DNA of 64,000 nt from Prevotella sp. (GTDB lineage Bacteria > Bacteroidota > Bacteroidia > Bacteroidales > Dysgonomonadaceae), in assembly GCA_031285625.1 (NCBI GenBank), contig JAITVV010000070.1, positions 1 through 64,000 of the forward strand. The letters are read 5' to 3'. The position numbers were made by a program, and so were the translations under genes. The notes under the pieces were generated by a model that had not been told where the DNA came from, searched no databases, and saw only the letters and a list, made by a program, of their open reading frames with translations. Shown piece after piece: positions 36,542 to 63,598 of the stretch (its first letter is position 1; the number at the start of each line of letters is the position of its first letter).

Positions 36542-38086
36542 TTATTCCGGATGTATTAGCAAATTCGGCTGATCCGAATATACTATATAATCCCATGATC
36601 GTAAGAAGTAATCATTATGAGCATCAACTTCAACTTTTATTTTATGCTTACCCTTAGGTAACTGATATTTCCAAAATAAATCATGCCTCCTGTATTTGAA
36701 ATCCGTTGGAAAAACGGATGTTTCGACTTTTTCCCCATCAATATACAATGAAGCTGTCAATTCTCCCTGTTCAGCACCGTTTCTTTTAATACCGGCATCG
36801 CCTCTCAAAGCAAAACCTGTACCATCTATCTCGAACTCGATAGTCCTGATATCATAATTGTGATAATTTATCCTACTTATAGGGAACATACCTTCAAAAC
36901 TTTGCTCATATTTTACAGTCTGAGGTTTTTGTACCTGAATGATAACGTTATCCCCATCAATCCTACCATTATTTCTTTCTATCATTTTCAGGGCATGTTC
37001 AAAACTAATGTCATATACCTTGTTTAATGACATATTGGTATATTTGAAGTTAATATCTTCTGCTCCGGTCAGTCCTTTTTTCCAATATTCAGGAATGTTA
37101 TCATAACCATACATCACTCCAAGAATACCACCGGCTGATGCCGGATTGCAATCTGAGTCCTGTCCGGCACGGGTTGATATTTCCAATGTGCGGGTATAGT
37201 TTCCTTTTCCGTAGAGTAGGCCTAGCACTACATAGGCCGCATTTATCCGGGCATCGATATTAAGGGCAGTAAAAACTCCCTCCGGGCATCCTATATCATC
37301 ACTATGGCCTTTTTGTAATAAGAGCCATGCCTGATGCCAATCGTCAGGATATTCTTTGTGCCATTTAATCACATCGGCAATACATTTATAAAATTTACTT
37401 TCTGTCGGAATAGTTTTTAAAGCCTCATTAACAATGAATTCAATATCATCCGATATAAAAGCCAGTGTATACATAGCTCCTATGTAAACTCCACCATACC
37501 AACCATCACCATAATTCATGATATGTCCTACTCTGTCACTTATCTCGGAGGCTGAATTTGTCATCCCGGGATTCATAAGTCCTGCAAAATCTGCTTCGAT
37601 CTGATAATCAATGTCATCAGCATGCGGATTGTTTAGCCAATGTCCAGGATCTTTAACACCATGCATTATATTATATCTTGCTGCCTGATTAGCATGCCAT
37701 AAATTGTAATCGGCATATGCAAAAGAATGTGCAAAAGAATCTACCGGAGCATCCATCCCTACTCTATCCAAGACCTCGACAAAGGTCAGGTCCATATAAA
37801 TATCATCAAAAAGATCGGGCCAACTATCCATAAGTTCTTTTACGTAACCTTCATGATAAGGTATAGGTTGAAAATCCTGAATAAATGTCCCATTATATTT
37901 AAACTCGGTATGACTGCCAAATGACACACCTATGGCTTGTCCTGCCCATCCACCTTTTATTTTATCATATAGCTGATTTTTTGAAAACGTTATTTTTTCA
38001 GGTAACAGTATCTCTTTTTTATCTGAATTACACGAATACTGGATAATACAAAACAAGACAATAAATATATTGAGATAATATTTCAT
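36542..38086 (-). CDS. ADP-ribosylglycohydrolase-family lipoprotein
   Basis: DKIKGGWAGQAIG, DDIYMD, DDIDYQIEAD, GQDSDCN; lipobox QYSC after Met at 38086. Confidence 0.85.
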   Translation of the reverse strand: MKYYLNIFIVLFCIIQYSCNSDKKEILLPEKITFSKNQLYDKIKGGWAGQAIGVSFGSHTEFKYNGTFIQDFQPIPYHEGYVKELMDSWPDLFDDIYMDLTFVEVLDRVGMDAPVDSFAHSFAYADYNLWHANQAARYNIMHGVKDPGHWLNNPHADDIDYQIEADFAGLMNPGMTNSASEISDRVGHIMNYGDGWYGGVYIGAMYTLAFISDDIEFIVNEALKTIPTESKFYKCIADVIKWHKEYPDDWHQAWLLLQKGHSDDIGCPEGVFTALNIDARINAAYVVLGLLYGKGNYTRTLEISTRAGQDSDCNPASAGGILGVMYGYDNIPEYWKKGLTGAEDINFKYTNMSLNKVYDISFEHALKMIERNNGRIDGDNVIIQVQKPQTVKYEQSFEGMFPISRINYHNYDIRTIEFEIDGTGFALRGDAGIKRNGAEQGELTASLYIDGEKVETSVFPTDFKYRRHDLFWKYQLPKGKHKIKVEVDAHNDYFLRSWDYIVYSDQPNLLIHPE

Positions 38087-38171
38087 TTTATATTCTTTAA
38101 TAAATGGTATACAAAGCATTATGTATTGGCCTGCCCCATATACAGACCAATACATAAAAAATTACAATAAA

Positions 38172-39965
38172 TCAATTTTTAGCACCAGACCATCCCGGGT
38201 TTTGAACAAAGGTGTCTGGGTTTTTATTTACTTCTTCTTGATGGAAAGGCCACAAATAGTGCTTAGGAGCATCAAAAACACGGTTTTCTACCCAAGTCCG
38301 TTTAAAGAAATTATCATCACGTGCATTAATATCCATACCATGAACTGCCTTTACCTGATCGCTTATCTTCCAGCGGTTGCAGTCGAAATAGCGATGTGTT
38401 TCAAGAGCTAATTCTACCTGGCGTTCGTGTCTTATTCTCTCTCTCATTTGATCCTTCGTCAGTCCTGTTTTCAAATTAGGCAAGCCGGCCCGTGTACGGA
38501 TCATATTCATATATTTGTATACATCACTAACCGGCCCCGAAGCCTCGTTCAGTGCTTCCGCATAGTTTAGATATATTTCAGCCATACGGAAATAATTCCA
38601 TGTTTTTTTAACAAATATACCCTTTGGCAGATCTACACCATTCTCATCTAAAAACTTACGCATCAGATAACCGGTGGTTGAGTAGTCCGGGCCGCCCCCA
38701 CGTCCGTCAGGTGCTCCCATGCGGAAGTCGATTTGACGACCACGCCAATGAGAGCCTGTATATGTAACCGTTGCATAAAAGCGCGGCTCGCGTTCAACAA
38801 ACATATTAAATGTATTTTCAGGATAATATCCCTTCGGGTGTGCCTCAGCTTTAAAGCCTTCTTCCAAATATCCTGATTCAGGATTAATGATTGGGCTACC
38901 ATCGGCATTATATCCCAAAATCGGAGTTTTCCCATTAGCCATTTCATATGCATCCACGAGCTCCTGAGTAGGACATAAGCCTGACCAACCGCCTAGGCTG
39001 AGAGGTCCTGCTGCGCGCTCCATTTGATCGTAGAATTCCATATTCTTAGCAAAAATTATTTCCTTATTCCAGTGTTCTGTAAATAAGTAGCGATAGTTAT
39101 CCAATGGGTCGCCCGATTCGGCATAGTATAATCCATAACCGCCAGCCTCCATTTCTTCAATACATTTTTTTGTATAGTCGGCAGCTATTTTCCAACGTTC
39201 GGCATCATAAGCTGTTGGGAACAGGTGATTGCCCTCCTTATCGGTAAAATTTGCATAGTCTGGGTTACCATTCCACAAAGGGCTTGCCCTGTATAGCAAT
39301 AGTCTTGACTTCAGCGCCATAGCGGCAGCCTTAGTTGCACGTCCGTACCTGTCGGATCCCTCTTTCATATTTAGGTAAGTTGTAGCTCTGTCGCACTCAT
39401 TGGCTATAAAATCCACACATTGATCCAGCGGCATACGGATAGTTGTTTCCGCAAAATTGTCGTTGGTCTCGAATACCCTTTCATAGATATGCGTCGGTCC
39501 ATAGATGCGTATCAGTTGGAAGTGAAAAAAAGCGCGTAAAAAAATGGCTTCACCAATCCAACCCTGACGTTTTTGTTCGTCCATTGGTACTTTATCTACA
39601 TTGGCGAGAAATATATTGGTCTTTCTGATTCCCTGATAGGCCATATTAGAAACATCTCTTAATACATTATCCGGAGTCCACGAGCCATTATTCATGAAAT
39701 AGGCAAAACAGTTGGTGTAGGGATAATCCAGTTCATCGGCCGCGCCTACAAATGGGTTTTGACCCCAGTCGTTTGTAAAATTAAGTTCCCACGGAGTGTT
39801 CCAGTAGGTGGATGATAAAAATTGCTCCGCATAATATTCATTTGAAAATACGGCATCAAGATCCAGATCCTCATCGGGTGCTTTCTCCAGATAATCCTCA
39901 CAGGAAGTGCCCATTCCCAGTAATATCATCAGCAAAATGCTGTATAGTATACTATTACGTTTCAT
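38172..39965 (-). CDS. SusD/RagB family lipoprotein
   Basis: SCEDYLEK, GEAIFLRAFFHF, RMAEIYLNYAEA, ERQVELALE, QNPGW. Confidence 0.95.
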   Translation of the reverse strand: MKRNSILYSILLMILLGMGTSCEDYLEKAPDEDLDLDAVFSNEYYAEQFLSSTYWNTPWELNFTNDWGQNPFVGAADELDYPYTNCFAYFMNNGSWTPDNVLRDVSNMAYQGIRKTNIFLANVDKVPMDEQKRQGWIGEAIFLRAFFHFQLIRIYGPTHIYERVFETNDNFAETTIRMPLDQCVDFIANECDRATTYLNMKEGSDRYGRATKAAAMALKSRLLLYRASPLWNGNPDYANFTDKEGNHLFPTAYDAERWKIAADYTKKCIEEMEAGGYGLYYAESGDPLDNYRYLFTEHWNKEIIFAKNMEFYDQMERAAGPLSLGGWSGLCPTQELVDAYEMANGKTPILGYNADGSPIINPESGYLEEGFKAEAHPKGYYPENTFNMFVEREPRFYATVTYTGSHWRGRQIDFRMGAPDGRGGGPDYSTTGYLMRKFLDENGVDLPKGIFVKKTWNYFRMAEIYLNYAEALNEASGPVSDVYKYMNMIRTRAGLPNLKTGLTKDQMRERIRHERQVELALETHRYFDCNRWKISDQVKAVHGMDINARDDNFFKRTWVENRVFDAPKHYLWPFHQEEVNKNPDTFVQNPGWSGAKN

Positions 39966-39997: not shown

Positions 39998-42900
39998 TTA
40001 AAAATCTACTGAAAGCCCGAAGTTGATTGCCCGTTGGATAGGATACCAGTTATCTGATTCCGGATCAATTGTGTTATTTATCTTATCCCAGGTAATAAGG
40101 TTAGTACCATTGGCAAATACCCTGATATTCTTCATTTTCAGTTTGCTCATCACTTTCTTTGGCAGGGTATAGCCTATCTCCATATTTTTCAGGCGAATAA
40201 AGCTGGCATCTTTTTGCCATACAGTCGAACGTCTCATGCTCTGTGGGTTATTTCCGTCTGTAACCACCGGGTACTTAGCCGAAGCAGCCGTTTCAGGTGT
40301 CCATCGGTTGTCGTAAACTTCATTAAATACGTTGAAGAATCCCATCCCCATTTCGAATGGATAAAAAGTGCGGCCTTCAAACCACAAACTTGTACGGGCA
40401 GATCCTGTAAAGAAAACACTGAAGTCGAATCCTTTATACTCAATAGTACCACCAAATCCAAAAACTAATTCCGGGTCACGGGTGTAACCGATCGCTGTCT
40501 GGTCATTACTATCGATAATACCATCACCATTCACATCCTTGTATTTCACATCACCCGGTATAGGACGTCCACCAAGCAAGGTCTGGTCGTACCAGTTGTC
40601 AATATCTTCTTCGGACTGGAAAAATCCTTCAGCTACAAGCCCGAACGGTTGGCCGATAGAATGGCCTATTTCGGATAAATTATCCCAAAGTGGTTTTGCC
40701 TTATCATTCTCTATTACCTCGTTGTGTGCATAGGTTATATTACCTCGGAAAGAATAGAAAAATCCGGAAGACGTACGATCTTTAAATTCCAACTGAGCAT
40801 CAAAACCACTGTTTTTGGCCTCACCCAAGTTACCCCATAAGGAACTTGCAGAAATGAAACCCGCACCAGTTGGCACTGACGAACGCTGCATTAGAATACC
40901 TTTTCTTCTTTCGTGGAAGAAATCGGTCTGCAAAGAGATACGATCTTTCCAAAGCCCGAGATCAAACCCAGCATTTGTTTTGACTGCTGTTTCCCAAGTC
41001 ACATCATTATATCCAATCTTAGTCTCTATTATGCCGGGCCACAAGACTTGCGACTCACCAAAATAAGCTCTCTGATCCGATCCACCATCCAGTTTTGTCA
41101 GATACAAGAAGCGGTCTCCACCAATCTGATCGTTACCAACTTCACCATGTGAAAATCTGAGTTTCAGATTGCTTACCACTTTATCGTTCCAAAACGATTC
41201 GCCGGAAACTAACCAGCCGACAGATATAGCAGGGAAAAAGCCCATCTGTTTTCCTTTCGGAAAGTTTTCAGAACCATTATAGCCAGCATTAAACTCGACG
41301 AAATATTTCAGTCCATAATCATAGGTAGCACGCATCGCAAGTCCCTGGCTACGATATGGCAAATTCAAAAGAGAGGTTCCGGCCGATAAGTCATCATACT
41401 GCCTGCGATTGAAGAGCAACATACCCGAAACGGTATGCATCTTGTTGAACGTGCGTTGGTAATTAGCCGATACATCCCAATAGACAGACTGATTTGTATT
41501 TCGTGTTGCATTGTTGAATCCCATGGCCTGAGCTTCGCGAACAATATTGTACTGGTCTTCACCAGATTCATCTTTTCCCAGATATTGTTTTATTCCGAAC
41601 GTTTTATATCGTAATGCTTTATTTGCATGATAATAATCGAACGAAAAATGTCCTTTTACCGACAAGCCTTTTGTTATCAGGCGCGACAAATCCCATGTAA
41701 GTCCGGCTGTAGACTGTATAGTCGTCAAACGTTCGTCGGAATACCCGGTCTCGGTAGACTGCCCCCATGGATTGGAACCGATATAGGTAGGTATGCCTGC
41801 TATACTGCCGTCGGGATTGGTTTTAGGGAAAATGATAGGGCCTGTATCGCGCAAACCGTCGAAGATACCGGCAGCACCAGCACCAGGATAAGTACGGTCG
41901 TCAATAATACCGCCAACACCTAATTCTACGATTAAATCTCTGCTCAGGTTTATATCCACATTGGAACGATAATTGTATCGCGCTACCCCTGCATTCGTAT
42001 TATGTTCATTAGCGGGATTAGTCCTATATATACCTGTTTGATTAGAATATCCAAGGTTTACATAGTAACGTACGATTTCACTACCGCCGGTTACACTCAG
42101 GTTATTTATCGTTTGAAATGAATTCGGTTTCAGAACTTCGTCTATCCAATCCACATTGGGATAGAGGTAAGGGTCGGATCCTGTGCGGAATTTCTCCAGC
42201 TCTTCGGATGTCCAGCGGGCAGGTTTGCCCACATTTGCCAATCCCTCGTTCATTAATGAGGCATATTGGTAACCGTCTATATAATTCCTTTGAGACAAGC
42301 TAGTAAGAATAGCCATCTCTGTACGGAACGAAACCTGAGGTTTTCCTTGTTTACCTCTCTTGGTGGTAATCAAGATAACCCCATTGGCCCCTTTTACCCC
42401 ATACACAGCTGTCGCTGAGGCATCTTTAAGCACTGATAAGCTTTCTACCTCGTCCGGGTTGACAGTACCTATAGAACGTTCTATACCATCTACCAATACC
42501 AACGGATTTTTTGCACCCCATGTTGCCATACCGCGGATATATATATTTGCAGCATCAAATCCCGGTTCACCGGATGTTTGTCGGGTAATAATCCCCGGCA
42601 TACGCCCCGACAGGGCATTGGGTAATGAAGTAGTTGCAGTTCGTTTAATTTCGGCGGGCGCAATATTCGAAATCGAGCCAACAACACTCACTTTCTTTTG
42701 GGTACCATAACCCACTACAACCACCTCATCCATCAGATTCTGGTCGCTGCTCATTGTTATGTTTATTTCTGTTCTTCCTCTTAATGGTTCTTCCGTCGTT
42801 ACCAATCCGACATAGCTGTAAACTATTATTGCATCGGTAGGCACATCAAACGAATATCGTCCTTCAGCATCGGTAAAAGTACCTACAACGGTACCTTTCA

Positions 42901-43117
42901 CCGTTACGGTCACTCCAGGTAGAATGTCTCCTAAGTCATCCTTTACAATCCCGGATACTTTTATTTTACCTCCATCATTATTCTGAGCATTTACCATTAC
43001 AGGCAATAATGCCAACGAAAATATGATGCAGAATATCACTTTATGCAGATCGTGCATCTTCCATCTTCCAATAAGTACATTGGTTCCGGACTTTCTGTGA
43101 GTAGTTCGTTTTTTCAT
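39998..43117 (-). CDS. SusC/RagA TonB-dependent transporter
   Basis: DEVVVVGYGTQKK, VLKDASATAVYG, GANGVILITTKRG, C-terminal GLSVDF. Confidence 0.97.
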   Translation of the reverse strand: MKKRTTHRKSGTNVLIGRWKMHDLHKVIFCIIFSLALLPVMVNAQNNDGGKIKVSGIVKDDLGDILPGVTVTVKGTVVGTFTDAEGRYSFDVPTDAIIVYSYVGLVTTEEPLRGRTEINITMSSDQNLMDEVVVVGYGTQKKVSVVGSISNIAPAEIKRTATTSLPNALSGRMPGIITRQTSGEPGFDAANIYIRGMATWGAKNPLVLVDGIERSIGTVNPDEVESLSVLKDASATAVYGVKGANGVILITTKRGKQGKPQVSFRTEMAILTSLSQRNYIDGYQYASLMNEGLANVGKPARWTSEELEKFRTGSDPYLYPNVDWIDEVLKPNSFQTINNLSVTGGSEIVRYYVNLGYSNQTGIYRTNPANEHNTNAGVARYNYRSNVDINLSRDLIVELGVGGIIDDRTYPGAGAAGIFDGLRDTGPIIFPKTNPDGSIAGIPTYIGSNPWGQSTETGYSDERLTTIQSTAGLTWDLSRLITKGLSVKGHFSFDYYHANKALRYKTFGIKQYLGKDESGEDQYNIVREAQAMGFNNATRNTNQSVYWDVSANYQRTFNKMHTVSGMLLFNRRQYDDLSAGTSLLNLPYRSQGLAMRATYDYGLKYFVEFNAGYNGSENFPKGKQMGFFPAISVGWLVSGESFWNDKVVSNLKLRFSHGEVGNDQIGGDRFLYLTKLDGGSDQRAYFGESQVLWPGIIETKIGYNDVTWETAVKTNAGFDLGLWKDRISLQTDFFHERRKGILMQRSSVPTGAGFISASSLWGNLGEAKNSGFDAQLEFKDRTSSGFFYSFRGNITYAHNEVIENDKAKPLWDNLSEIGHSIGQPFGLVAEGFFQSEEDIDNWYDQTLLGGRPIPGDVKYKDVNGDGIIDSNDQTAIGYTRDPELVFGFGGTIEYKGFDFSVFFTGSARTSLWFEGRTFYPFEMGMGFFNVFNEVYDNRWTPETAASAKYPVVTDGNNPQSMRRSTVWQKDASFIRLKNMEIGYTLPKKVMSKLKMKNIRVFANGTNLITWDKINNTIDPESDNWYPIQRAINFGLSVDF

Positions 43118-43700
43118 AGATTTTGGTTTTTATACAATGTATTTTTTAATAGATTATAGTTTATTAATTTCTAAACGCAGAGTTGAGTATATCGGATAAC
43201 TTATCTGGGCTTCATTGTATTACTTTAAATCAGGGGTAGGATTTGGGTAAAACAATTGTGAATTCCATGTATAATAGATTATGTAAATCAAAAATAAAAA
43301 CTATCTGATAGTCCTATTTCTCAATTTTATATGGTTTTTATATTTTCAAATAATTATATATAAAGTTCGTTCGTGTTTAAAAATTTGAATAACAGACATT
43401 TATTCAAATATTATTATCATGCTTTTATATAAATCAGATAGGAAAACACAAGCTTGGAAATATGCCTAATGAGTAGATCTTTAAAAAAATTAGAATAATT
43501 TTTTGATTCAAAAAATATATGAAGGGAATCAACTTGTTAAAAAAGGGCTTTAATTTGCAACAATATTAAAAACACAAAAAATAGTATCACAGATTTTTTT
43601 AATTAAGAATATTATTCCTTATATTTAGATGTAATCCCAGATAATCTATTAGAGTTTAATAGATATTCTTATAATGAAGACACGTATATCTAACAGTACT

Positions 43701-44609
43701 ATGAAAGCACCAAAAATTGTCGTAATCGGTAGTTCCAACACCGATATGATTGTAAAAGCAAAGCAGCTGCCTGTTCCCGGAGAAACTATTTTAGGGGAGA
43801 ATTTCATTATAAACCCCGGAGGTAAAGGTGCCAATCAGGCTATAGCTGCCAAAAGATTGGGGGGAGATATTACCTTTATAACTAAAGTGGGCAATGATCT
43901 TTTTGGGATGCAGGCGTTTGAAATTTATCGTTCAGAATATATAAATACCGGTTATGTATTTAAGGACCCGGATAATCCATCAGGTGTTGCACTTATCTCT
44001 GTAGATTCGATGGGCGAAAATTGTATAATCGTTGCCGGGGGATCAAACATGCGACTTTCACCGGAAGATATAGATAAAGCTGAAGAAGCTATTAAAGAAT
44101 GTGACTTGGTTCTGATACAACTGGAGATTCCATTGGAAACTGTGGAATACGCTGTAGATCTGGCTCATCGCCATGGTAAAAAGGTTATATTGAACCCTGC
44201 ACCTGCAACATCTTTAAGTAATGACCTATTAAAAAAGTTGTATGCCATTCTTCCTAATAGAATAGAGGCACAGATGCTTTCGGGAATCCAGGTTACAGAT
44301 GAAAAATCAGCTTATGAAGCCTCTCATGCTATAAGCAAAAAAGGAATTGATAATGTAGTGATTACACTCGGTAAAGCAGGTGCGTTTGTGAAAGAGGATG
44401 ATAACTATCGGATGATACCTGCAAAAGAAGTTGAAACAATTGATACAACCGGGGCAGGAGATGTTTTCTGTGGCGCTATCAGCGTATATTTATCTGAAGG
44501 ATATTCATTAATGGATTCTGTAGCATTTGCAAATATGGCTGCATCAATATCTGTAACCAGAATAGGTGCGCAAAGTGCGATTCCTTTCAGACGGGAAGTA
44601 TTTTTATAA
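43701..44609 (+). CDS. rbsK: Ribokinase (PfkB family), copy 1
   Basis: GSSNTDM, PGGKGANQA, LNPAP, DTTGAGD. Confidence 0.88.
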   Translation: MKAPKIVVIGSSNTDMIVKAKQLPVPGETILGENFIINPGGKGANQAIAAKRLGGDITFITKVGNDLFGMQAFEIYRSEYINTGYVFKDPDNPSGVALISVDSMGENCIIVAGGSNMRLSPEDIDKAEEAIKECDLVLIQLEIPLETVEYAVDLAHRHGKKVILNPAPATSLSNDLLKKLYAILPNRIEAQMLSGIQVTDEKSAYEASHAISKKGIDNVVITLGKAGAFVKEDDNYRMIPAKEVETIDTTGAGDVFCGAISVYLSEGYSLMDSVAFANMAASISVTRIGAQSAIPFRREVFL

Positions 44610-45782: not shown

Positions 45783-46487
45783 TTATTTCCGTTTTTTTCT
45801 ATATATGCACATCTCCAATTCGCAAAGCTGACATCCATATGCAGTATATTTTACATTTTTTCCACAACCAATGACTCCACTGATCGACTTCGATGGAATC
45901 ATTAACGATGATGGTGTTAATTTTACACCGCAAGGATTGTCTGGAAGCATAGAAAATACCTTAGCTTGTTCGTTTGTATTCCAATTACAATAACCCGGGC
46001 TATAGCGATTTGTTATGTTCATTCCTCTTGTTTTCATTTCTTCAGAAATATGTTCCTGTATGATATCCATTGCTTTTTCTACAATAATATTTCCGAGTAT
46101 ATCTACGAAGTAAGCTTTAACAAGTTCATTGGTGTTGATATATTCCTTATACTGTTGGGTAATGCCATGGCCCGATGTACAGACGAAAACAATAAGTTGT
46201 TCCGCATTTCTTAATTGACGGGCAATTTTACTTCCACAATTAAATTCTAAGCTATCCGCAGAAAATTCTTTTTTTCCGATGGATACTGTATCTAAGATTC
46301 TGTACAGAGCACTGGCTTTTGAAATGTTTTTCCCGATAGAAATTACTTCTTCCATTTCGGAAAGGAATGGTTCATAAGAAGGCACGGAAGCGTCTGACGT
46401 CTCAAAAAAATCTTCGGGATTTATTTGAAGGCGTTCATATGAAATCTCACTTTCATAAATTTCTATGCTACTAATGTTTCCAGCCAT
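45783..46487 (-). CDS. Stand-alone B12-dependent methionine synthase reactivation (AdoMet-binding) domain protein
   Basis: FVCTSG, RYSPGYCNW, LMIPSKSISG, C-terminal CQLCELEMC. Confidence 0.85.
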   Translation of the reverse strand: MAGNISSIEIYESEISYERLQINPEDFFETSDASVPSYEPFLSEMEEVISIGKNISKASALYRILDTVSIGKKEFSADSLEFNCGSKIARQLRNAEQLIVFVCTSGHGITQQYKEYINTNELVKAYFVDILGNIIVEKAMDIIQEHISEEMKTRGMNITNRYSPGYCNWNTNEQAKVFSMLPDNPCGVKLTPSSLMIPSKSISGVIGCGKNVKYTAYGCQLCELEMCIYRKKRK

Positions 46488-53011: not shown

Positions 53012-53127
53012 GGTGTTCCGATTAATTTGGTTACAATTTATAGGTATCAAATCTTAAGTTCAGCTAGCATTTTTATAAGATTTTCCGGTAGTGTATTTCA
53101 TTAGCTAGCCAGCAAAAAAACTCTAAG

Positions 53128-55195: not shown

Positions 55196-56092
55196 ATGAA
55201 AAAAATAGTTGTTATAGGAAGTAGTAATACAGATATGGTAATAAAGTCTGATAAATTGCCAAACCCGGGCGAAACAATCCTGGGTGGAGAATTTTTGCTA
55301 AATCCCGGAGGTAAAGGGGCTAATCAGGCAGTAACTGCTGCAAGACTTGGTGGAAAAGTCACATTTATTGCAAAAATAGGCAGTGATGCATTTGGCAAAA
55401 ATTCAATAAATCTATATTCGTCCGAAGGTATAAATACCGAATTTATTTTTTCTGATCCGGAAAAGCCGTCAGGTGTAGCATTAATAAATGTAAATGAAAG
55501 TGGTGAGAATTGTATTGTAGTAGCTCCGGGTGCTAATGGCTTATTATCGGTAGAAGATATAGAAAAAGCGAAATATGAGATTGAATCTGCCGATATCTTA
55601 TTAATGCAACTGGAAATCCCTCTATCTGTGGTTGAGTATTCCGCTAAGCTGGCATACGAAAAAGGTATAAAGGTTATTCTGAATCCGGCTCCGGCCAATG
55701 AACTTTCTAACTCCTTACTAAAATGTCTGTATATTATAACACCAAATAAGAATGAAGCGGAGGCACTCTCGGGAATAAAAATAACTGATATCGAAAGTGC
55801 AAAAAGTGCAGCTGCAGTAATAAGAGAAAAAGGAGTTGACACAGTAATAATTACGATGGGCGAATTAGGCGCTATCATTTGTGATGACCAACTTCATCAA
55901 ATCCCTGCCGTAAACGTAAAAACAGTGGATACAACAGCTGCGGGTGATGTATTTAATGGAGCTTTATCAGTGGCGCTGGCTGAAGATAAAAGCATAGTGG
56001 ATGCAGTAATATTTGCCTGTAAATGTGCTGCGCTGTCGGTGACCAAACTAGGTGCCCAGTCATCTATTCCCTACCGGAACAATATTGTTTGA
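55196..56092 (+). CDS. rbsK: Ribokinase, copy 2
   Basis: GSSNTDM, PGGKGANQA, TPNKNEA, DTTAAGDVFNG. Confidence 0.92.
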   Translation: MKKIVVIGSSNTDMVIKSDKLPNPGETILGGEFLLNPGGKGANQAVTAARLGGKVTFIAKIGSDAFGKNSINLYSSEGINTEFIFSDPEKPSGVALINVNESGENCIVVAPGANGLLSVEDIEKAKYEIESADILLMQLEIPLSVVEYSAKLAYEKGIKVILNPAPANELSNSLLKCLYIITPNKNEAEALSGIKITDIESAKSAAAVIREKGVDTVIITMGELGAIICDDQLHQIPAVNVKTVDTTAAGDVFNGALSVALAEDKSIVDAVIFACKCAALSVTKLGAQSSIPYRNNIV

Positions 56093-56127: not shown

Positions 56128-58764
56128 ATGCGTAGTTTTTTATTTTTTATTTTAGTCATACTGGTTTCAATGAAGCCATTTGCTGTATTCCCAGGAGAGC
56201 AAAACCAAAATCTGTCTCTGTCCGGAATGGTAACGGCATCATCTAATGCCGGAAAGCAATATCATGAGAAGAATGTTGCCGATAATAACATGGAAACTTT
56301 ATGGAAGGCAAAAAAGTCAAATGCAGAACAATGGTTGCTTATCGATCTGAAGAGTAATTATGCATTAAATAAGATAAGCCAGACTTTTGGAAATACGGCT
56401 GTCTGGAAATTCAAGATTGAAGGTTCTGTAGATAAACAGAATTGGACAATGCTGGTTGATAAAACAAAGGGCGCCTCAGGAATATCATTTGCCGAAAGTG
56501 TGTCCGGGGTTTACCGTTATGTACGGTTAACAATATCCGGATCCGGTAACAATGATATTGCTTCATCAGCCGAATTTGCAATCTATGGAACCGATAAGGG
56601 TACTAATATTGCCTTGGGTAAATATTTTAACACTCATGTGCGACAAGAAGGCTTCGAACCGGAAAAAGCACTTGATGGCGATATTGCGACATATTGGAGA
56701 GCATCGAATACCTATCCGCAGACGTTGACTTTAGATTTGAGAAGAATGTGCATGATTACCGGGGTAAGACAGGTGTTTAAGCAGCATGACATATGGAAAT
56801 TTAAAATAGAAGGATCAAAGGACAACCAGCAATGGGATAGCCTGTTAGATAACTCACAAGGCGATAGGGGATTCGATTTCTCTACTTCTGTTTCGGGTGA
56901 CTACCATTTTATCCGGTTAACCATTCTGGAATCTTCATCAGGGTATATTGCCAATAGTTGCGAATTTTGTGTCTACGGATTCGAATCGGACAATAATGAA
57001 GTAAAGCCGCTCCGTAAGAATCTGGCTTATAATACAGCAGCATCTACTTCTTCATTCGACCGGAACGACTATTCGCAATATAAAGCTTTGGATGGTAATG
57101 AGCATACATTCTGGCGCGCCGACGATACATCAATGCCGCAATGGCTATTGGTTGATTTAGGAAACTCATGCCAAATCGATGAAATAAGCCAGGTATTTAC
57201 AAATGAGGATACATGGAAGTTTAAAATTGAGGCTTCGAACGATAAAGATAACTGGACAGAAATAGCTGATGAAACGGCCGGTTATACAGGTTCCCGTTAC
57301 TCAAAGGCTATGAATGGCTATTATCGTTACGTAAAGATTACTATAACAGATGCTGAAAATAAAAACCGGGCCGGAAGTAAGGAATTAGCTATATATGGTA
57401 CGGGATCTCCCAAGACAGCAAAATGGTGGGAAGATAAGTCCGGAATGTCACGCTATTATCCAAAATTCTATAAGCAGACTTTTCCATCCATTATCGACAG
57501 TTTAGATATTATTCAGGCACAGGGATATAATATTCTCGAATTCTCAGCTCCTTACGAGGGCGATCCTGAAGTATGGGGAGGTTTGGGAGCTACCAACAAT
57601 TATGCTATCGATCCTTCGATAGGCACAATGGAAGATTTTGAACGCTTACTCAGGGAAGCTCACGCCCGTGACATGAAGGTTATCTTCTTCGGAAATGTAG
57701 GTTATTGCTGGCATGAAGCTCCTTTTTTCCAAAAAGCATGTGACGATGAGAGGAATAAAGTAAACAGCAAAGAACGCAAATGGTTCCATTTTAGCCAGAC
57801 AAAACATAGCGACAGTTGGTTCTGGAGCGAGAGAGCCCAGGCATATTACTATTCATTCTGGGGTAATTCTGATGGTGCAGAAGGGCGTATACCTAATTAT
57901 AATTTCAACAATCAGGAATGGCGCGATGAATGTGTGAACTATCTTAATTTTTGGTCGAATAAAGGTGTTGACGGACTATTGCTTGATGCTCCCGGAGCCT
58001 ATGATGGTATCAATGATGCCATTATAGAAGAAAATATAGTGAAGGTTCTTAACCGTCATGGTATAGTTACTAATGCTGAAGGTTCAGGGGATGTATATCA
58101 TTGGATGCACCGTTTCGGATTCAACAGTATACAGGGATTTGATGTATATGGCTGGGGTGGAGGTAAGCGAAGTGATATACTTGCCGGGCGAAAGACAAAT
58201 ACCCCTCAGGGACTGGATAAAAAACTAAAGGAGTACAGAGACATGGCAAATGCTTTTAATGGTGTTACCATAACTCCTCCGATGTGGGAAATACCTGCTA
58301 CTGAAGATGAACGGATATTTGAAGTTGCTTATCTGACAACTTTAGGAACCATCTTTGTAAATCATTACGGGGATCATCACCGTGACTATATCGCACAATT
58401 TATTATGAGCAAATGGCCTCTTGAAAAGCAAAAAGAATTCTATGATCTTGTTCGCACCCAGAATAGCTATATTGGACTGGCTCCTTACGGACAACGCATG
58501 TGTTTGCCTACAAATGACGATGAAAAATATACGGCATTCAAGAGAACCAATAAGGATGGAAAAGTTTCGGCACTCGTTATCTTCAACTTTCAGGATGCAG
58601 AAAGTACTATATCTGTCGATCTTAGAAACTCTGGGATAGACCATTCACACACACCTATCGATTTGTTGACAGGGAAAGCGGCCAAACCGATCACTTCCGA
58701 TAAATATGCAGTTTCTGTACCTGCCTATGGATATCTGATTTTGGGTGTGGAAAACGAAATGTAA
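56128..58764 (+). CDS. Secreted protein: three discoidin (F5/8, CBM32-like) domains + GH13-like TIM barrel
   Basis: Three repeats of A.D.N..T.W...QWL..DL...WKFKIE.S.D...W...YRYV; YAIDPSIGTMEDFERLLREAHARDMKVI, GVDGLLLDAP. Confidence 0.75.
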   Translation: MRSFLFFILVILVSMKPFAVFPGEQNQNLSLSGMVTASSNAGKQYHEKNVADNNMETLWKAKKSNAEQWLLIDLKSNYALNKISQTFGNTAVWKFKIEGSVDKQNWTMLVDKTKGASGISFAESVSGVYRYVRLTISGSGNNDIASSAEFAIYGTDKGTNIALGKYFNTHVRQEGFEPEKALDGDIATYWRASNTYPQTLTLDLRRMCMITGVRQVFKQHDIWKFKIEGSKDNQQWDSLLDNSQGDRGFDFSTSVSGDYHFIRLTILESSSGYIANSCEFCVYGFESDNNEVKPLRKNLAYNTAASTSSFDRNDYSQYKALDGNEHTFWRADDTSMPQWLLVDLGNSCQIDEISQVFTNEDTWKFKIEASNDKDNWTEIADETAGYTGSRYSKAMNGYYRYVKITITDAENKNRAGSKELAIYGTGSPKTAKWWEDKSGMSRYYPKFYKQTFPSIIDSLDIIQAQGYNILEFSAPYEGDPEVWGGLGATNNYAIDPSIGTMEDFERLLREAHARDMKVIFFGNVGYCWHEAPFFQKACDDERNKVNSKERKWFHFSQTKHSDSWFWSERAQAYYYSFWGNSDGAEGRIPNYNFNNQEWRDECVNYLNFWSNKGVDGLLLDAPGAYDGINDAIIEENIVKVLNRHGIVTNAEGSGDVYHWMHRFGFNSIQGFDVYGWGGGKRSDILAGRKTNTPQGLDKKLKEYRDMANAFNGVTITPPMWEIPATEDERIFEVAYLTTLGTIFVNHYGDHHRDYIAQFIMSKWPLEKQKEFYDLVRTQNSYIGLAPYGQRMCLPTNDDEKYTAFKRTNKDGKVSALVIFNFQDAESTISVDLRNSGIDHSHTPIDLLTGKAAKPITSDKYAVSVPAYGYLILGVENEM

Positions 58765-59013: not shown

Positions 59014-60024
59014 ATGTTTATTGTAGAAAGCTACCCTTTAGCAATATTATTTTGTGTAATAACAATGCTGTGTTGGGGTTCATGGGGAAATACACAAAAG
59101 TTAGCCGCTAAAACATGGCGATACGAGCTGTTTTATTGGGACTACGTGATTGGCATTGTAATTTTATCCGTAATACTTGGCTTCACACTTGGAAGTTTTG
59201 GTGAAGAGGGTAGAAGCTTTATCGAAGACCTGAAGCAAGTAAGCGGATCTATGGTTTTAAGTGCCATTATCGGAGGTATTGTGTTCAATGCTGCTAATAT
59301 ATTATTGTCTGCGTCTATTTCGCTGGCAGGTATGTCTGTCGCATTCCCATTAGGAGTAGGGCTGGCTTTGGTTTTGGGCGTATTCATTAATTATTTAAAT
59401 ACACCAAAAGGAGATCCGGTTATTTTATTTCTGGGTGTAGCTCTGATTGTAATTGCCATAATATTTAACGGCATTGCTTCCGGGAAAATGACTAAAAGCA
59501 GCGAAGAGATGAAAACTAGGAAAAAAGGAATAATCATCGCTGTTTGTGCAGGTATCCTTATGTCATTCTTCTACAGATTTGTGGCACGTGCTATGGATTT
59601 GGATAATTTCGAAAATCCTACTCCGGGCATGATGACTCCTTATTCTGCATTTTTTGTATTCTCGCTTGGAATATTAGCAAGTAACTTCCTGTTTAATACA
59701 TTGGTTATGAAGAAACCATTTGTTGGTGGCCCTGTCACTTATTCCGAATATTTCAAAGGTAATGCTAAAACACACATGGTAGGAATATTGGGCGGTTTGA
59801 TATGGGGGTTGGGTACCGCTTTCAGTTATATAGCAGCAGGCAAGGCCGGAGCTCCCATATCATATGCATTAGGTCAGGGAGCACCTATGATCGCCGCACT
59901 GTGGGGAGTCTTTGTCTGGAACGAATTTAAAGGAGCTAATAAGACAGTTAATATATTACTTACATGCATGTTTATTCTGTTTATATCGGGACTGGGACTT
60001 ATTGTGGTTTCAGGAGGAAATTAG
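59014..60024 (+). CDS. DMT-superfamily sugar/ureide permease (GRP family, RusT-like)
   Basis: MLCWGSWGNTQKL, WRYELFYWDY, YALGQGAPMIAALWGVFVWNEF. Confidence 0.85.
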   Translation: MFIVESYPLAILFCVITMLCWGSWGNTQKLAAKTWRYELFYWDYVIGIVILSVILGFTLGSFGEEGRSFIEDLKQVSGSMVLSAIIGGIVFNAANILLSASISLAGMSVAFPLGVGLALVLGVFINYLNTPKGDPVILFLGVALIVIAIIFNGIASGKMTKSSEEMKTRKKGIIIAVCAGILMSFFYRFVARAMDLDNFENPTPGMMTPYSAFFVFSLGILASNFLFNTLVMKKPFVGGPVTYSEYFKGNAKTHMVGILGGLIWGLGTAFSYIAAGKAGAPISYALGQGAPMIAALWGVFVWNEFKGANKTVNILLTCMFILFISGLGLIVVSGGN

Positions 60025-60163: not shown

Positions 60164-61342
60164 ATGAAAAGAAAAATTCTTACGCATCTCTTTCTTATCA
60201 TATTTTTATTGGTAGGCAACTCTGTTTTTTCTCAAGATTTTGCTGGGGATCTCAGTAGCCTGATCACTATAAAAAAAGATATGAAAAGCCGCCGTATCAG
60301 CACGGCAGACCCAACAGGTAACAATCATGACAATACAGGGTTAATCAAGATTGGAGATAAGAAGGTAATCGAGATTGAAGGATCTGGAATCATCAATCAT
60401 ATCTGGATGACGATTGCTCCCTGGGATATGAGGCGAAATGATATTATTTTACGCATATATTGGGATGGAAATGACTATCCTTCAGTTGAATCACCGCTGG
60501 CTGCATTCTTTGGAAACGGCTGGGACGAAAAATATAATTATGCATCTTTGCCGCTGGCAGTAGGACCTGCCGACGGAACAGGTATGGTATCTTATTTTCA
60601 GATGCCATTTAAAAACGGAGCTAAAATAGAAATTGAAAATCAGGCAGATCGAAATATCGACTGTATATATTTCTATATAGATTATGTGGAAATGAATGAG
60701 CTACCTGATTATATAGGTCGTTTCCATGCATGGTACAATCATAAATTAACAGAAGCATTGCCAGAAGGCGAGACCGAATGGGGGGTTGTCGGCACAATGG
60801 AAAACAATGTAGATGGTGCCAGAAATTATGTTTTCATCGATACTAAGGGAAAAGGACATTTTGTAGGTATCAACTATTATGTACATTGCCCTTCTCCGAT
60901 GTGGTATGGCGAAGGAGACGATATGTTTTTTATAGATGGTGAAAAACGGGCATCGATTTTAGGTACGGGAACCGAAGACTTTTTCAATACCTCGTGGTGT
61001 CCCAAAACACTTTTCGCTCATCCTTATTACGGGTATGCCAGAGTAAATAATGAGATTGGCTGGCTGGGAAGGACACATGTATACAGGTTTTTTGTTTCAG
61101 ATCCAATATATTTTGACAAATCGCTAAAAGGTACTATCGAGCATGGTCATAACAATAATCTGACACTCGATATCGGTACTGTAGCATACTGGTACCAAAG
61201 TGAAGCGGGCATATTACCTCCGGCACCAACGAAAGAACAACGTGCTCCTAAAGCATTCATTATCGATCGTGATATACATAAGTGGCGTCATGAATGGAGA
61301 AAGAGTAAAGGAAATAGTTCTACATTGTGGGGTAATGAATAA
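60164..61342 (+). CDS. GH172 (DUF2961) furanosidase
   Basis: Signal peptide; GSGIINHIW, RFHAWY, WYGEGDDMFFIDG, GTGTEDFFN. Confidence 0.9.
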   Translation: MKRKILTHLFLIIFLLVGNSVFSQDFAGDLSSLITIKKDMKSRRISTADPTGNNHDNTGLIKIGDKKVIEIEGSGIINHIWMTIAPWDMRRNDIILRIYWDGNDYPSVESPLAAFFGNGWDEKYNYASLPLAVGPADGTGMVSYFQMPFKNGAKIEIENQADRNIDCIYFYIDYVEMNELPDYIGRFHAWYNHKLTEALPEGETEWGVVGTMENNVDGARNYVFIDTKGKGHFVGINYYVHCPSPMWYGEGDDMFFIDGEKRASILGTGTEDFFNTSWCPKTLFAHPYYGYARVNNEIGWLGRTHVYRFFVSDPIYFDKSLKGTIEHGHNNNLTLDIGTVAYWYQSEAGILPPAPTKEQRAPKAFIIDRDIHKWRHEWRKSKGNSSTLWGNE

Positions 61343-61382
61343 TTAAAGCTAATCATTAGTATAACTTAGATATTGGTTACTT

Positions 61383-61470
61383 CTTGTCATTCTGAACATA
61401 GTGAAGAATCTCTTCTCTTCTATCTATGAAAAATGGGTTGGGATGTTTCACTCCGTTCAACATGACAAAG
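61383..61470. repeat. REP-like palindromic repeat, same family as 36413-36490 (inverted)
   Basis: CTTGTCATTCTGAAC...GATGTTTCACTCCGTTCAACATGACAAAG; 28-nt arm matches the 36416-36443 copy with 1 mismatch. Confidence 0.8.
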
Positions 61471-61507
61471 AGAATTGAACGTAAAATAACTATATCAAAT
61501 TTTAAAG

Positions 61508-63598
61508 ATGAAATATCGGTTTGCAGTCAGTCTGTCTATTGTCTTAATCACTTTATTTTCATTATCCTGTGATAATGAAAATAAAGAAATAACCTTTCTT
61601 TCCTTATTGCATGAGATGACTGATAGAGAGTCTACCAGCAAATATCCCGATCCGTACTATACAGCTAAGCAGTTTAGCAGCTATGATCGTGCTTCGGATA
61701 CTGCCAGAATAGGATCTTTCTACTGGTTTGCAAACTGGGATTTTAGCCAGTTTTTACGTACGGAAGAAAATAATGGACGAAGGGAATTTGTATTGTTCGA
61801 TGCGGAGGGTCCGGGAGCTGTTGTAAGATTCTGGATAACTGTAGCCCATTATAATGACAATGGTATACTACGGTTCTATCTGGATAAGTCGGAAAAACCT
61901 GTGATAGAAGGTGAAGTACTATCTCTTATTAGTGGTGGAAAACTGGTAGGTGATCCTTTGTCGGTATCTGTTTCCGAAACAACACCCTACAAACAGAGAG
62001 GGCATAATTTGTACCTGCCCATTCCTTATTCACGACATTGTAAGATAACATATGAAACGCCCGGAATTATTGAAGCAGGAAGAAAACCTCCAGGTGAAAA
62101 TTTTTTCTATAGTGTTGCATATAGGACTTATGAAGAAGGTACTGACGTAAAAAGCTTTACAATGGAAGATCTGTTGCTCTATTCCGAAGATATAAAACTA
62201 ACGCAGCAAAAACTTAAATCGGAACCTGATTTTTCCAATTTTACCAAAACAGAATCTGAAACTAAAAATATAAAAAGCAAGGATTCTGAAAATATGGTTT
62301 CTTTAGCAGGTACAAAAGCAATCAAAGGTATCTCTGTTAAACTCACTGCCGAAGATTACGAACAAGCTTTGCGTTCGACAATACTTAAGATATCGTTTGA
62401 TGGAAACCAGTCGGTATGGGCACCGGTAGGTGACTTTTTTGCAACAGGAAACCGTCTTTCTCCTTACCGTTCTTTTTATACTACTGTAACAGGAGATTCG
62501 ATATTAGACTGTTATTGGGTGATGCCATTTAAAGACAAATGTGAAATTTCTCTGGAAAACTTAAACGGTAAACCTGTACAGGCATCACTTACAGTCTATT
62601 CATCGAATACCAAATGGGATAAAAACAGTATGTATTTCGGTGCCGGATGGACAGAATATAACCGTAAGCACACGGGCGAAAAAAGGAGTATAGATGGATC
62701 GTATGGAGCCAGTGATATTAATTTTGTTACACTTAATGGCAAAGGTATTTATGTGGGAGATGCTGTAACCATCTTCAACCCGATAGGTGACTGGTGGGGC
62801 GAAGGTGATGAGAAAGTATATGTGGATGGTGAAAGTTTTCCCTCGTTTTTCGGAACAGGGACAGAAGACTATTATGGTTATGCATGGTGTCTGCCAAACT
62901 TTTTTGAGCATCCGTTTATTGGCCAACCTGATGGGCAGGGTGCATACCAACCCGGCCATGTCTCGAACCTGCGCTATAGGGGATTGGATGGGATCACTTT
63001 TGATAAATCCATTATATTTGATATGGAATTCTGGCATCAGGGTGGTACATATATAAACTATGCTGTGACGACTTATTGGTACATGTTGCCCGGAGGTAAA
63101 ACCAACCGAAAGGAAGAGACTGCATTAGCTTCCTTGCCTATTGTAAAACATAAAAATGAACTGGTTAGCAATGTTCCTGACGAAAATGGGATCATTGAAG
63201 GCGAATACCTGAATATTAAAGTTCAGGGCGGTATGGAAAGAACCCAAAGCCTTATTGACTTTGAATGGCGCAACGGTACTCAATTCATCTGGCGCGAAGC
63301 TAATACGGGCGATATTGCATGGCTCGGGTTTGTAGCAAAAGATGAAGGTGTATATCAAATTAACTTTGAAATGACAACTGCTACAGACTATGGAAGGTTT
63401 GCACTTTACATTAACGATAAATTGGTAGAACAGTCATTTAATGCATATAGCTCTGTATTGCAGATGAAAACCCTTATTTTGAAAAATATACAGCTTAGAA
63501 AAGGAGAGAATATATTAAAGGTGGTACAATTACAGAGAGATCCGAAGGCTGTAAATACATTATTCGGACTGGATTATATGACTCTTATTAAAAAATAA
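61508..63598 (+). CDS. GH172 (DUF2961) lipoprotein with C-terminal beta-sandwich/CBM-like domain
   Basis: Lipobox SLSC; QFSSYDR, GPGAVVRFW, WWGEGDEKVYVDG, GTGTEDYYG. Confidence 0.88.
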   Translation: MKYRFAVSLSIVLITLFSLSCDNENKEITFLSLLHEMTDRESTSKYPDPYYTAKQFSSYDRASDTARIGSFYWFANWDFSQFLRTEENNGRREFVLFDAEGPGAVVRFWITVAHYNDNGILRFYLDKSEKPVIEGEVLSLISGGKLVGDPLSVSVSETTPYKQRGHNLYLPIPYSRHCKITYETPGIIEAGRKPPGENFFYSVAYRTYEEGTDVKSFTMEDLLLYSEDIKLTQQKLKSEPDFSNFTKTESETKNIKSKDSENMVSLAGTKAIKGISVKLTAEDYEQALRSTILKISFDGNQSVWAPVGDFFATGNRLSPYRSFYTTVTGDSILDCYWVMPFKDKCEISLENLNGKPVQASLTVYSSNTKWDKNSMYFGAGWTEYNRKHTGEKRSIDGSYGASDINFVTLNGKGIYVGDAVTIFNPIGDWWGEGDEKVYVDGESFPSFFGTGTEDYYGYAWCLPNFFEHPFIGQPDGQGAYQPGHVSNLRYRGLDGITFDKSIIFDMEFWHQGGTYINYAVTTYWYMLPGGKTNRKEETALASLPIVKHKNELVSNVPDENGIIEGEYLNIKVQGGMERTQSLIDFEWRNGTQFIWREANTGDIAWLGFVAKDEGVYQINFEMTTATDYGRFALYINDKLVEQSFNAYSSVLQMKTLILKNIQLRKGENILKVVQLQRDPKAVNTLFGLDYMTLIKK

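Follow-up and report, generated by a model that had tools for sequence, protein, structure and literature searches.

A candidate B12-dependent methyl-transfer operon embedded in the only rus-type locus of a Prevotella sp. genome

A 64,000-nucleotide stretch of DNA from Prevotella sp. (GenBank assembly GCA_031285625.1, contig JAITVV010000070.1, positions 1 to 64,000; hereafter the window) carries a 27-kb rus-type ribose-utilisation locus (36542-63598), in which 17 genes are recognised from the open reading frame (ORF) list and from Pfam and NCBIfam models. Between the ribokinase gene K1 and the gene for the regulator RusR, this locus is split by an 8.4-kb methyl-transfer operon read on the minus strand from 53050 down to 44614. 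We propose, at evenly balanced confidence, that the two parts would make up a single nutrient locus reaching from the outer membrane to the cytoplasm, in which the organism's only rus-type ribose system is accompanied, between K1 and RusR, by a corrinoid-dependent operon for the B12-dependent demethylation of an imported methylated sugar. The support for this proposal is contextual and comes from the families of the encoded proteins and from the genes that surround them here and in other genomes.

Composition of the methyl-transfer operon

The operon encodes, in order, A, GH38L, C, D, CP, AE and MFS, with intergenic gaps of -25 to 85 nt. Throughout, D, A and C denote proteins of the URO-D family, CP the corrinoid protein, AE the MetH-type activation domain, GH38L and GH13L the GH38- and GH13-like proteins, ADPRGH the ADP-ribosylglycohydrolase, and K1 and K2 the ribokinases; gene functions are assigned from family membership and neighbourhood. 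CP (46463..47134; minus strand, like every gene of the operon) is a B12-binding protein and predicted methyl carrier with cap and B12-binding domains (PF02310 B12-binding, 85.8 bits; PF02607 B12-binding_2, 74.5 bits). Its DxHxxG motif reads DLHDIG at residue 114, and D114, H116 and G119 are invariant in 31 homologues. AE (45783..46487) is a stand-alone MetH-type reactivation domain (Met_synt_B12, 42.5 bits, cut-off 25), proposed to repair Co(II) by reductive methylation.

Three URO-D proteins are encoded ahead of this pair. C (48270..49274; URO-D, 185 bits) is MtaA-like, and its best match in the PDB is 4ay7 (E 1.8e-16), aligned over 300 residues that include the H-x-C and the distal Cys. The database name of 4ay7 is methylcobalamin: coenzyme M methyltransferase; we take it to be the second methyltransferase (MT2) of a three-component corrinoid O-demethylase system, and presumably it binds methyl-tetrahydrofolate. 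D (47157..48218; URO-D, 70.4 bits) stands 22 nt from CP and keeps H242, C244, H263 and E266 invariant in 42 sequences; the ESM Atlas returned only generic URO-D names for it. A, encoded by the first gene (51956..53050; URO-D, 132 bits), probably starts at a Met near 53011, as judged from a homologue in locus L041. An H-x-C...C zinc motif defines MtaA/CmuA, and zinc is present in both MtaA and MtaB. At these positions C has H225, C227 and C307, aligned with 4ay7, A has H-x-D...H, and D has H-x-C with Asn at the third position. The motif was rejected as a test of thiol versus folate as methyl acceptor because 4ay7 retains the same motif.

The two remaining genes encode a glycosidase-like protein and a transporter. 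GH38L (49360..51912) is a lipoprotein (lipobox LFFSC) matching Glyco_hydro_38N at 36 bits (cut-off 25); a sequence search of the PDB gave no match, and the protein shares a BLAST cluster with true GH38 proteins in L025 (158 bits) and L072 (GH38N, GH38C and the middle domain). It is proposed to free the methylated sugar as a glycosidase of the periplasm or the cell surface. MFS, the last gene (44614..45768; MFS_1, 106.6 bits), encodes a predicted inner-membrane importer with weak best matches to glucose/galactose, TsgA and fucose carriers (gluP, 48.7 bits, under the NCBIfam cut-off), and its orthologues adjoin D or CP in L024, L027, L030 and L042. Lipoprotein signals were read at the N-termini of GH38L, GH172b and ADPRGH (the last from an internal Met) and ordinary signal peptides at those of GH13L and GH172a, and the N-termini of A, C, D, CP and AE have no signal peptide. 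This pattern would place the glycosidases outside the cytoplasm and the methyl-transfer proteins inside, with MFS between them.

A proposed constant core with exchangeable methyltransferases

The same genome holds a second cassette (G000 contig C95, L009:1389-14351) with a URO-D protein of 416 aa, a CP of 211 aa, a Met_synt_B12 domain and a C-type URO-D protein of 341 aa. It comes after a locus of GH16, SusC, SusD and Exo_endo_phos genes with a divergent AraC regulator, and a GFO/IDH/MocA oxidoreductase gene comes after the cassette. C is 60% identical to the 341-aa protein over its full length, whereas A and the 416-aa protein share 23%. A tree was built from 146 URO-D proteins of 300-470 aa encoded at all the loci retrieved, less three duplicates and without the second cassette; in it the three proteins of the window fall into separate clades of very different size: D (n=77), C (n=10) and A (n=4; the window, L024, L041 and L052). 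Nine of the ten members of the C clade lie within 3 genes of CP. We infer that C, CP and AE form a constant core and that A and D are variable donor-side enzymes. On this basis, C is proposed to be the constant methyl-corrinoid:acceptor methyltransferase (MT2), D the substrate:corrinoid methyltransferase (MT1) of a widespread glycan-linked family, and A a second MT1; the division into MT1 and MT2 rests on constancy versus variability across loci, not on activity.

An even draw of 400 other Bacteroidales genomes extends this picture. A close small CP homologue (a frame of <300 aa, E<=1e-43) occurs in 73 of them, as counted from the match listing. AE homologues are labelled near CP in 18 of 20 CP loci of other Bacteroidales, with none labelled in L147 and L158, and across these 20 loci the partners of CP and AE vary between MtaB, MTTB-family proteins and assorted URO-D types, often among genes for GH78, GH106, GH2, GH29, GH109-like proteins, sulfatases, SusC/D and SSF transporters.

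Individual loci illustrate the range. At L148:8747-12367, CP and AE stand with MtaB (514.8 bits) and a stand-alone homocysteine S-methyltransferase domain, and at L164:9773-13493 with an MTTB-family protein; both cassettes look like methionine synthases drawing methyl groups from methanol or methylamines. In the congener G049 (L145:1-19588, with which L146 is grouped), GH78, rhaM-like and GH31 genes, a URO-D-like protein of 354 aa without a Pfam match and an SSF transporter are followed by CP (74%), C (68%), AE, GH141 and GH78, a set of GH78, GH31 and GH141 that would suit the 2-O-methyl-xylose-fucose fragment of rhamnogalacturonan II. Three genomes (G197, G057 and G396) have a CP-like stretch (41-44% identity) inside frames of 1006-1024 aa, shorter than MetH, which are possibly fused methyltransferase-corrinoid proteins.

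Taken together, the cassette family resembles a MetH divided into separate proteins, with other, interchangeable donors in place of its methyl-folate module, which makes homocysteine a serious candidate for the methyl acceptor. The only PF02574 match of the window's genome, however, lies within MetH, so that C would have to carry out the homocysteine transfer or use tetrahydrofolate; a MetF homologue is present.

The D family and glycan breakdown

Relatives of D were found at 89 other non-redundant loci from several phyla. A scan of genome contigs gave 4 loci and a scan of metagenomes 387 relatives, of which the best 80 were kept (58-82% identity); a profile search returned 298 clusters at E<=1e-30. 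Neighbourhoods were counted over 81 loci after dropping three duplicates, 74 with any neighbour and 62 with an upstream gene. Immediately upstream of D there is a GH38-type gene at 12 of these 62 loci, and at 14 one lies no more than two genes away; a labelled glycosidase, esterase or sulfatase lies within 3 genes of D in 46 of 74, a lower bound because only protein clusters of 3 or more received Pfam names. The neighbours include GH38, GH2, GH92, GH130, GH29, sulfatase and sugar-transporter genes. A second URO-D gene occurs within 3 genes in 34 of 74 loci, and CP is adjacent to D, or within 3 genes of it, in 9 of 81.

Representative arrangements are a true GH38 gene, D and two sulfatase genes in a Victivallaceae metagenome-assembled genome (MAG; L025); MFS, DUF4432, D, CP, C and aldose 1-epimerase in L027; and a LacI-like regulator, D, CP and A in L041. 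In a Halanaerobiaceae MAG (L026:3315-6419), a D homologue (43%) has a sulfatase gene on one side and, on the other, the genes for a glycyl-radical enzyme, split over two frames, and its activase. An ADPRGH lipoprotein is encoded directly upstream of D in L028 and L035, and any rus gene lies beside D at one of the 89 loci, that of the Bacteroidales MAG L024.

Within the sample of 400 Bacteroidales genomes, a D orthologue (59-80% identity) is present in 8, one of which has a GH172-like gene adjoining D (L138). A close small CP is found in 7 of these 8 genomes against 66 of the 392 without D (Fisher p 3.6e-5; relatives are not independent, and two pairs are congeneric), and all 4 genomes behind L023-L026 hold small B12-binding_2 frames away from D. 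D goes with CP at the level of the genome and with glycan breakdown at the level of the locus, and not with rus. Among the best 150 representatives two proteins are long, one with an unmatched N-terminus and the other, P0010 (686 aa), a tandem fusion of A-like and D-like URO-D domains in which H-S-D-G replaces H-C-C-G. The fusion is a hint that D and the URO-D protein so often encoded beside it work as a pair.

The rus arm and the borders of the locus

RusR (53373..54926, plus strand), divergent from the methyl operon, is a BT2802-family ribose-utilisation regulator (NF058569, 625.5 bits, cut-off 550) and is single-copy in the genome, which makes this its only rus-type locus. K1 (43674..44609, plus strand; TIGR02152, 381.3 bits, cut-off 299.65) converges with the methyl operon and is 72-79% identical to K1 of congeners and of L024. 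The stop codons of K1 and MFS are 4 nt apart (44609-44614), which leaves no room for a terminator between these convergent genes, and one RNA-library contig spans both. K2 (55196..56092, plus strand) passes both TIGR02152 (369.3 bits, cut-off 299.65) and NF008353 (353 bits).

On the far side of K1, a minus-strand block (36542-43117) encodes a SusC-like TonB-dependent transporter (39998..43117; Plug and CarboxypepD_reg domains), a SusD-like outer-membrane glycan-binding lipoprotein (38172..39965; SusD_RagB 199 bits, SusD-like_3 63.6 bits) and the ADPRGH-family lipoprotein (36542..38155; PF03747, 120 bits). The last has a lipobox in its N-terminus and probably starts at an internal Met near 38089, giving MKYYLN...YSC; proteins 67-69% identical to it are encoded in the rus loci of the congeners G017 and G023.

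The plus-strand block runs from RusR to the second GH172 gene (53373-63598). Downstream of K2, GH13L (56128..58764) is a protein with a signal peptide, three F5/8-type-C (CBM32-like) domains and a GH13-like domain in Pfam; PF00128 matches at 57.9 bits over model positions 21-194 of 446 only, Malt_amylase_C at 29.5 bits, and PDB matches to GH13 are confined to residues ~430-640. The sugar permease (59014..60024; Ureide_permease and Sugar_transport families, RhaT/GlcU subfamily 60.8 bits) is of the RusT type, being 72-75% identical to the permease in the RusR/K1/K2 loci of four congeners. Of the two GH172 proteins, the secreted GH172a (60164..61342; DUF2961, 271.3 bits) matches the PDB entries 8ah3 (DG02479; 589.8 bits over residues 28-392) and 4kq7 (630.7 bits), and would be a close homologue of a characterised exo-alpha-D-arabinofuranosidase if 8ah3, equated by its shared number only, is HMPREF9455_02479. 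GH172b (61508..63598) is a lipoprotein (lipobox LFSLSC) with a long N-terminal extension, a DUF2961 match of 211.8 bits at residues 288-525 and PDB matches to 4kq7, 7v1v and 8ah3.

Short intergenic repeats lie at 58791-58833, between GH13L and RusT, and at 61385-61474, between the two GH172 genes. Word depth at both spots is raised several-fold in the compared runs, with many loose contig ends; they look like common repeat elements of the community at which contig joins vary. An inverted-repeat search at the two spots returned none, and imperfect repeats are visible on reading the sequence. An Rfam scan of the whole window gave 0 matches and therefore no cobalamin riboswitch.

The locus is flanked upstream by FtsK, HTH-cupin, AMP-binding and DUF418 genes and downstream by genes for DUF3667, RF-2, an S9 peptidase, LolA and a pyridine-nucleotide disulphide oxidoreductase. 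Both flanks are housekeeping in character, and 36542 and 63598 are therefore taken as its real borders, as the original prediction, made from the sequence of the window, had placed them. That prediction had also listed 17 genes, all of which were found at their coordinates among the ORFs with Pfam and NCBIfam, and two of its claims are borne out: the rus-like character of the locus, in which RusR, two ribokinases, SusC/D and the permease pass family tests, and a corrinoid methyl-transfer set that, judged by protein families, is complete in the embedded operon (CP, AE and three URO-D proteins). Its 'orphan regulator' is the BT2802-family RusR. Two labels needed revision, the genes themselves being present: the 'DMT permease' is the RusT-type permease identified by its congeneric relatives, and the 'hydrolase' is a GH38-like protein with a lipoprotein signal.

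Linkage of the rus and methyl modules

The pairing of the two modules recurs in the more distant MAG L024, where A, a second CP (CP2), GH38L, a paralogue of GH13L (52%), C, D, CP, AE, MFS, RusR and K1 follow one another on one strand, with proteins 54-85% identical to those of the window. Another short contig of that genome has the GH13L orthologue (67%) beside RusT (86%), ADPRGH (66%) and a SusC-like gene. This arrangement indicates that the rus-methyl linkage survived rearrangement and that a duplication of GH13L, which belongs to the rus arm, placed a copy in the methyl operon. The AE gene of L024 (10235-11082) matches in two pieces separated by a gap of about 100 nt, which may be a frameshift or an insertion.

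A near-identical arrangement is present in other insect-gut runs. Positions 43600-58823 are matched with about 200 differences (about 98.7% identity) by X2, a contig of 22 kb from another study, and the 16.6-kb contig X5 covers 43600-52974 at about 93%. Sequencing runs that share 0.05-0.10 of the window give no habitat evidence, and the three compared were used only for contig bridging. Contigs of the RNA library X10 cover both parts of the locus at a word depth of 19.8-33.1, with breaks at 49319/49347, 53232/53360 and 55007/55171, all intergenic. This is a weak hint that both parts are transcribed, DNA carry-over being possible, and the contigs of X10 and X11 are no measure of expression level.

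Other comparisons favour a chance joining. Eleven of 34 other genomes of the genus have a RusR match at E<=1e-30, and the four closest of these loci (54-60% identity) contain RusR, K1, K2, SusC/D and RusT, or RusR divergent from K1, RusT, K2 and ADPRGH; within 20-40 kb around RusR in these four congeners no methyl-operon protein is matched. A search of 24 congeners for D yielded no orthologue; two of them showed weak matches only (E about 1e-10). None of the 17 RusR-bearing genomes in the sample of 400 has a CP match on the RusR contig, and around D in the 8 D-bearing genomes there are no rus genes within about 10 kb. The joining of rus and methyl modules appears specific to this termite/insect-gut lineage.

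For the original prediction, which had paired a rus-like locus with demethylation of methylated pentofuranoses, these results cut in different directions. The pairing itself holds, reordered in L024 and near-identical in the other insect-gut contigs; its restriction to a single genome, which the prediction had named as a refutation, is nearly, though not fully, what was found. The link of the methyl set to sugars also extends beyond the window, with D among genes for GH38, GH2, GH92, GH130, GH29, sulfatases and sugar transporters. The pentofuranose substrate is not upheld, given the scarcity of rus genes beside D, the RusR contigs and congeners without the module, a GH38-type gene as the commonest neighbour of D, and an operon MFS that resembles glucose/galactose and fucose carriers.

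Proposed pathway and alternative explanations

Based on these comparisons, we propose the following route. GH38L, and probably also GH13L, would free an O-methylated mono- or oligosaccharide outside the cytoplasm, and the hexose-type MFS would take up the methylated sugar. In the cytoplasm D and A, whose predicted metal sites are variant and unlike each other, would hand the methyl group to Co(I) of CP, from which the MtaA-like C would move it to an acceptor, either homocysteine or tetrahydrofolate. AE would re-activate oxidised Co(II), and the freed sugar would enter ordinary catabolism. The partner genes of D point to a hexose of the mannose type rather than a pentofuranose, and a methyl-hexose of this type is the likelier substrate.

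Several observations weigh against this proposal. CP is not adjacent to D in 72 of 81 loci, nor does it lie within about 10 kb of D in the 8 D-bearing Bacteroidales genomes, and no D-corrinoid fusion occurs among the best 150 representatives of D. All three URO-D proteins score below the cut-off of TIGR01463 for MtaA/CmuA (235.4 bits; C 139.3, A 93.6, D 43.5), and by these scores are relatives of that family, not members. In GH38L the GH38 N-domain alone is matched, and weakly. A comparison of 9-12-base k-mers between the window's three promoter regions, L024 and the rus promoters of four congeners found none shared with the window, and there is no promoter motif common to the methyl operon and the rus promoters. 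Membership of the URO-D family does not prove a sugar substrate, because MT1 and MT2 proteins of this family also serve aryl methyl ethers, and we know of no obvious high-capacity methyl sink in Bacteroidales. The adjacency counts are biased by the choice of loci via D or via CP, and the incomplete naming of neighbours limits the count of glycan-related genes around D.

The promoter comparison would sit well with a rather unlikely account in which an ancestor of this lineage acquired, between K1 and RusR, a mobile operon for methyl transfer with its GH38 gene, which serves a nutrient other than that of rus. The D family and the CP/AE cassette are found in a wide range of unrelated settings, congeners have complete rus loci that lack the module, and the operon runs opposite in strand to both flanking rus units and encodes its own transporter. 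Against this account, the linkage survived the rearrangement between the window and L024 despite protein identities of 54-85%, and a GH13L paralogue has moved into the L024 operon while the orthologue is still beside RusT; the similar depth of X10 RNA-library contigs over both parts hints weakly in the same direction, with the caveat of DNA carry-over. The original prediction, read as a single methyl-ribose system, appears improbable to us. Here 2-O-methylribose from RNA, or a methyl furanose from cell walls, would be demethylated to ribose and phosphorylated by the ribokinases, with the product activating RusR. The operon does lie inside the genome's only rus locus, in L024 it runs straight into RusR and K1 on the same strand, K1 and K2 pass ribokinase equivalog cut-offs, ADPRGH lipoproteins stand directly upstream of D in L028 and L035 (named members of the ADP-ribosylglycohydrolase family cut ribosyl bonds), and a GH172-like gene adjoins D in L138. 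Against it stand the single rus-bearing locus among the 89, the lack of CP on the RusR contigs of all 17 sampled genomes and of the module in four congeners, and the company of D, which is 58-85% identical across loci with GH38, GH92, GH130, GH2 and GH29, all hexose or deoxyhexose families. The operon's MFS, moreover, resembles hexose and fucose carriers in a locus that already has RusT for pentose.

A different donor, the methoxy group of a lignin phenolic or of a plant phenolic-glycoside aglycone, is a decidedly improbable source; glycosidases would then strip the sugars and the corrinoid system would harvest methyl groups chiefly for methionine. URO-D-family MT1 and MT2 proteins are known aryl-O-demethylases of acetogens and Desulfitobacterium, and it is from such a system that we take 4ay7, the best PDB match of C, to come. 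The window's assembly matches a termite-gut metagenome run, rhamnosidase genes (GH78, GH106) stand beside some D and CP loci, and other Bacteroidales join CP and AE with MtaB or MttB and homocysteine S-methyltransferase, which looks like methionine formation from assorted donors. Yet the most regular partner of D is GH38-type, accompanied elsewhere by GH92, GH130, sulfatases, aldose 1-epimerase, sugar transporters and a LacI-type regulator, and no aromatic-ring catabolism or phenolic-acid genes appear among the named neighbours. It is highly improbable that D, A or both are URO-D/MetE-fold enzymes with some other sugar-directed activity, leaving only C, CP and AE as a small methyl-transfer unit. 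Such a role would agree with the many D loci that have no CP nearby, with the pairing of D and another URO-D gene at 34 of 74 loci, with the tandem fusion P0010, and with Asn in place of Cys at the third metal-ligand position of D. Speaking against it, D lies 22 nt from CP in the window and the two are neighbours at 9 loci, their co-occurrence across genomes is marked (7 of 8 versus 66 of 392), and CP, AE and C without an MT1 would be left with no methyl donor enzyme. On balance we favour demethylation of an imported methylated sugar as the function of the operon.

Implications

O-methyl sugars such as 2-O-methyl-xylose, 2-O-methyl-fucose, 4-O-methyl-glucuronate, 3-O- and 6-O-methyl-mannose and 6-O-methyl-galactose occur in plant, algal, fungal and bacterial glycans, where the methyl group blocks ordinary glycosidases and kinases. 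As far as our literature searches show, the removal of sugar methyl ethers by anaerobes is undescribed: full-text searches listed no work on the demethylation of sugars by corrinoid systems, nor any on cassettes of this type in loci of Bacteroidota. The original prediction likewise knew of no characterised B12-dependent sugar demethylation of this kind in the phylum. Somewhat more tentatively than for the locus itself, and with the balance tilted slightly against it, we suggest that D and A-like URO-D proteins are the donor-side enzymes of an undescribed class of B12-dependent O-methyl-sugar demethylases. A common core of CP, AE and MT2 would then be fitted into Bacteroidales polysaccharide-utilisation loci of differing specificity, with the methyl group passing to methionine or the C1 pool. 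Examples would be the rus/GH172/GH38-like locus described here, GH92/GH130 loci, and the congener GH141/GH31/GH78 locus, which would fit the methyl-xylose-fucose stub of rhamnogalacturonan II. Much less likely, the present locus would suit actinobacterial envelope glycans, that is, arabinan together with polymethylated mannose and glucose polysaccharides, a thought based on the joint presence of a GH172 D-arabinofuranosidase homologue, GH38L, GH13L and two MT1 candidates; mycobacteria make polymethylated polysaccharides.

If correct, our proposal would supply a mechanism for the anaerobic demethylation step, help explain in a new way why gut Bacteroidales depend on B12, tie glycan breakdown to methionine and C1 supply, and offer enzymes that demethylate alkyl methyl ethers under mild conditions. 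The family is wider than this genome, as the 298 D clusters (E<=1e-30) and the CP homologues in 73 of 400 Bacteroidales genomes indicate.

Comparison with known systems

The main text describing the rus locus of B. thetaiotaomicron (BT2802-2809) reports 70 'enzyme-diversified' configurations with many glycosidase families and ADP-ribosylglycohydrolases (10.1101/574913). Like that locus, the window has a BT2802-family RusR, two ribokinases, SusC/D, a RusT-type permease and an ADPRGH within a variable enzyme load; unlike it, the gene order is broken up, and the 8.4-kb corrinoid operon separates K1 from RusR. The main text of that paper has 0 mentions each of methyltransferase, corrinoid, cobalamin, uroporphyrinogen and B12 (10.1101/574913).

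HMPREF9455_02479 (DgGH172c) is reported as an exo-alpha-D-arabinofuranosidase of the Dysgonomonas gadei D-arabinan polysaccharide-utilisation locus (PMC10115798), and GH172a resembles it through the 589.8-bit match to 8ah3 'DG02479', equated with it by number only. That locus is described in the article's text as having a fucose isomerase and DUF4185 endo-arabinanases, with no rus or corrinoid genes mentioned and 0 mentions of 'ribokinase' or 'ribose' (PMC10115798). Unlike it, the window has no DUF4185 gene.

The methyl operon shares features with MetH, whose metH model scores CP at 128.6 bits and AE at 18.9 bits, and with sister Bacteroidales cassettes that use a stand-alone homocysteine S-methyltransferase as MT2 (PF02574, 231-235 bits); it differs from both in that its MT2 candidate is the MtaA-like C. 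It also resembles the corrinoid O-demethylases of Desulfitobacterium hafniense and Acetobacterium in having candidate methyltransferases of the URO-D/MtaA fold for the donor and the acceptor side of a small corrinoid protein with DxHxxG. Those systems, made up of MT1, CP, MT2 and an activating enzyme, use an ATP-dependent reductive activator, whereas the activator of the window is a MetH-type domain, and to our knowledge the host, a member of the Bacteroidales, has no acetogenic pathway. Unlike them, the operon adds the secreted GH38L and a sugar-type MFS in SusC/D surroundings, and its substrate is presumed to be an alkyl (sugar) rather than an aryl methyl ether.

Aerobic marine Bacteroidota demethylate 6-O-methyl-D-galactose oxidatively via a cytochrome P450, a reaction that needs O2. 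As in that route, demethylation would here be built into a polysaccharide-utilisation locus for the use of methylated sugars; unlike it, the system of the window would be an anoxic, B12-dependent analogue drawn from an unrelated enzyme family.

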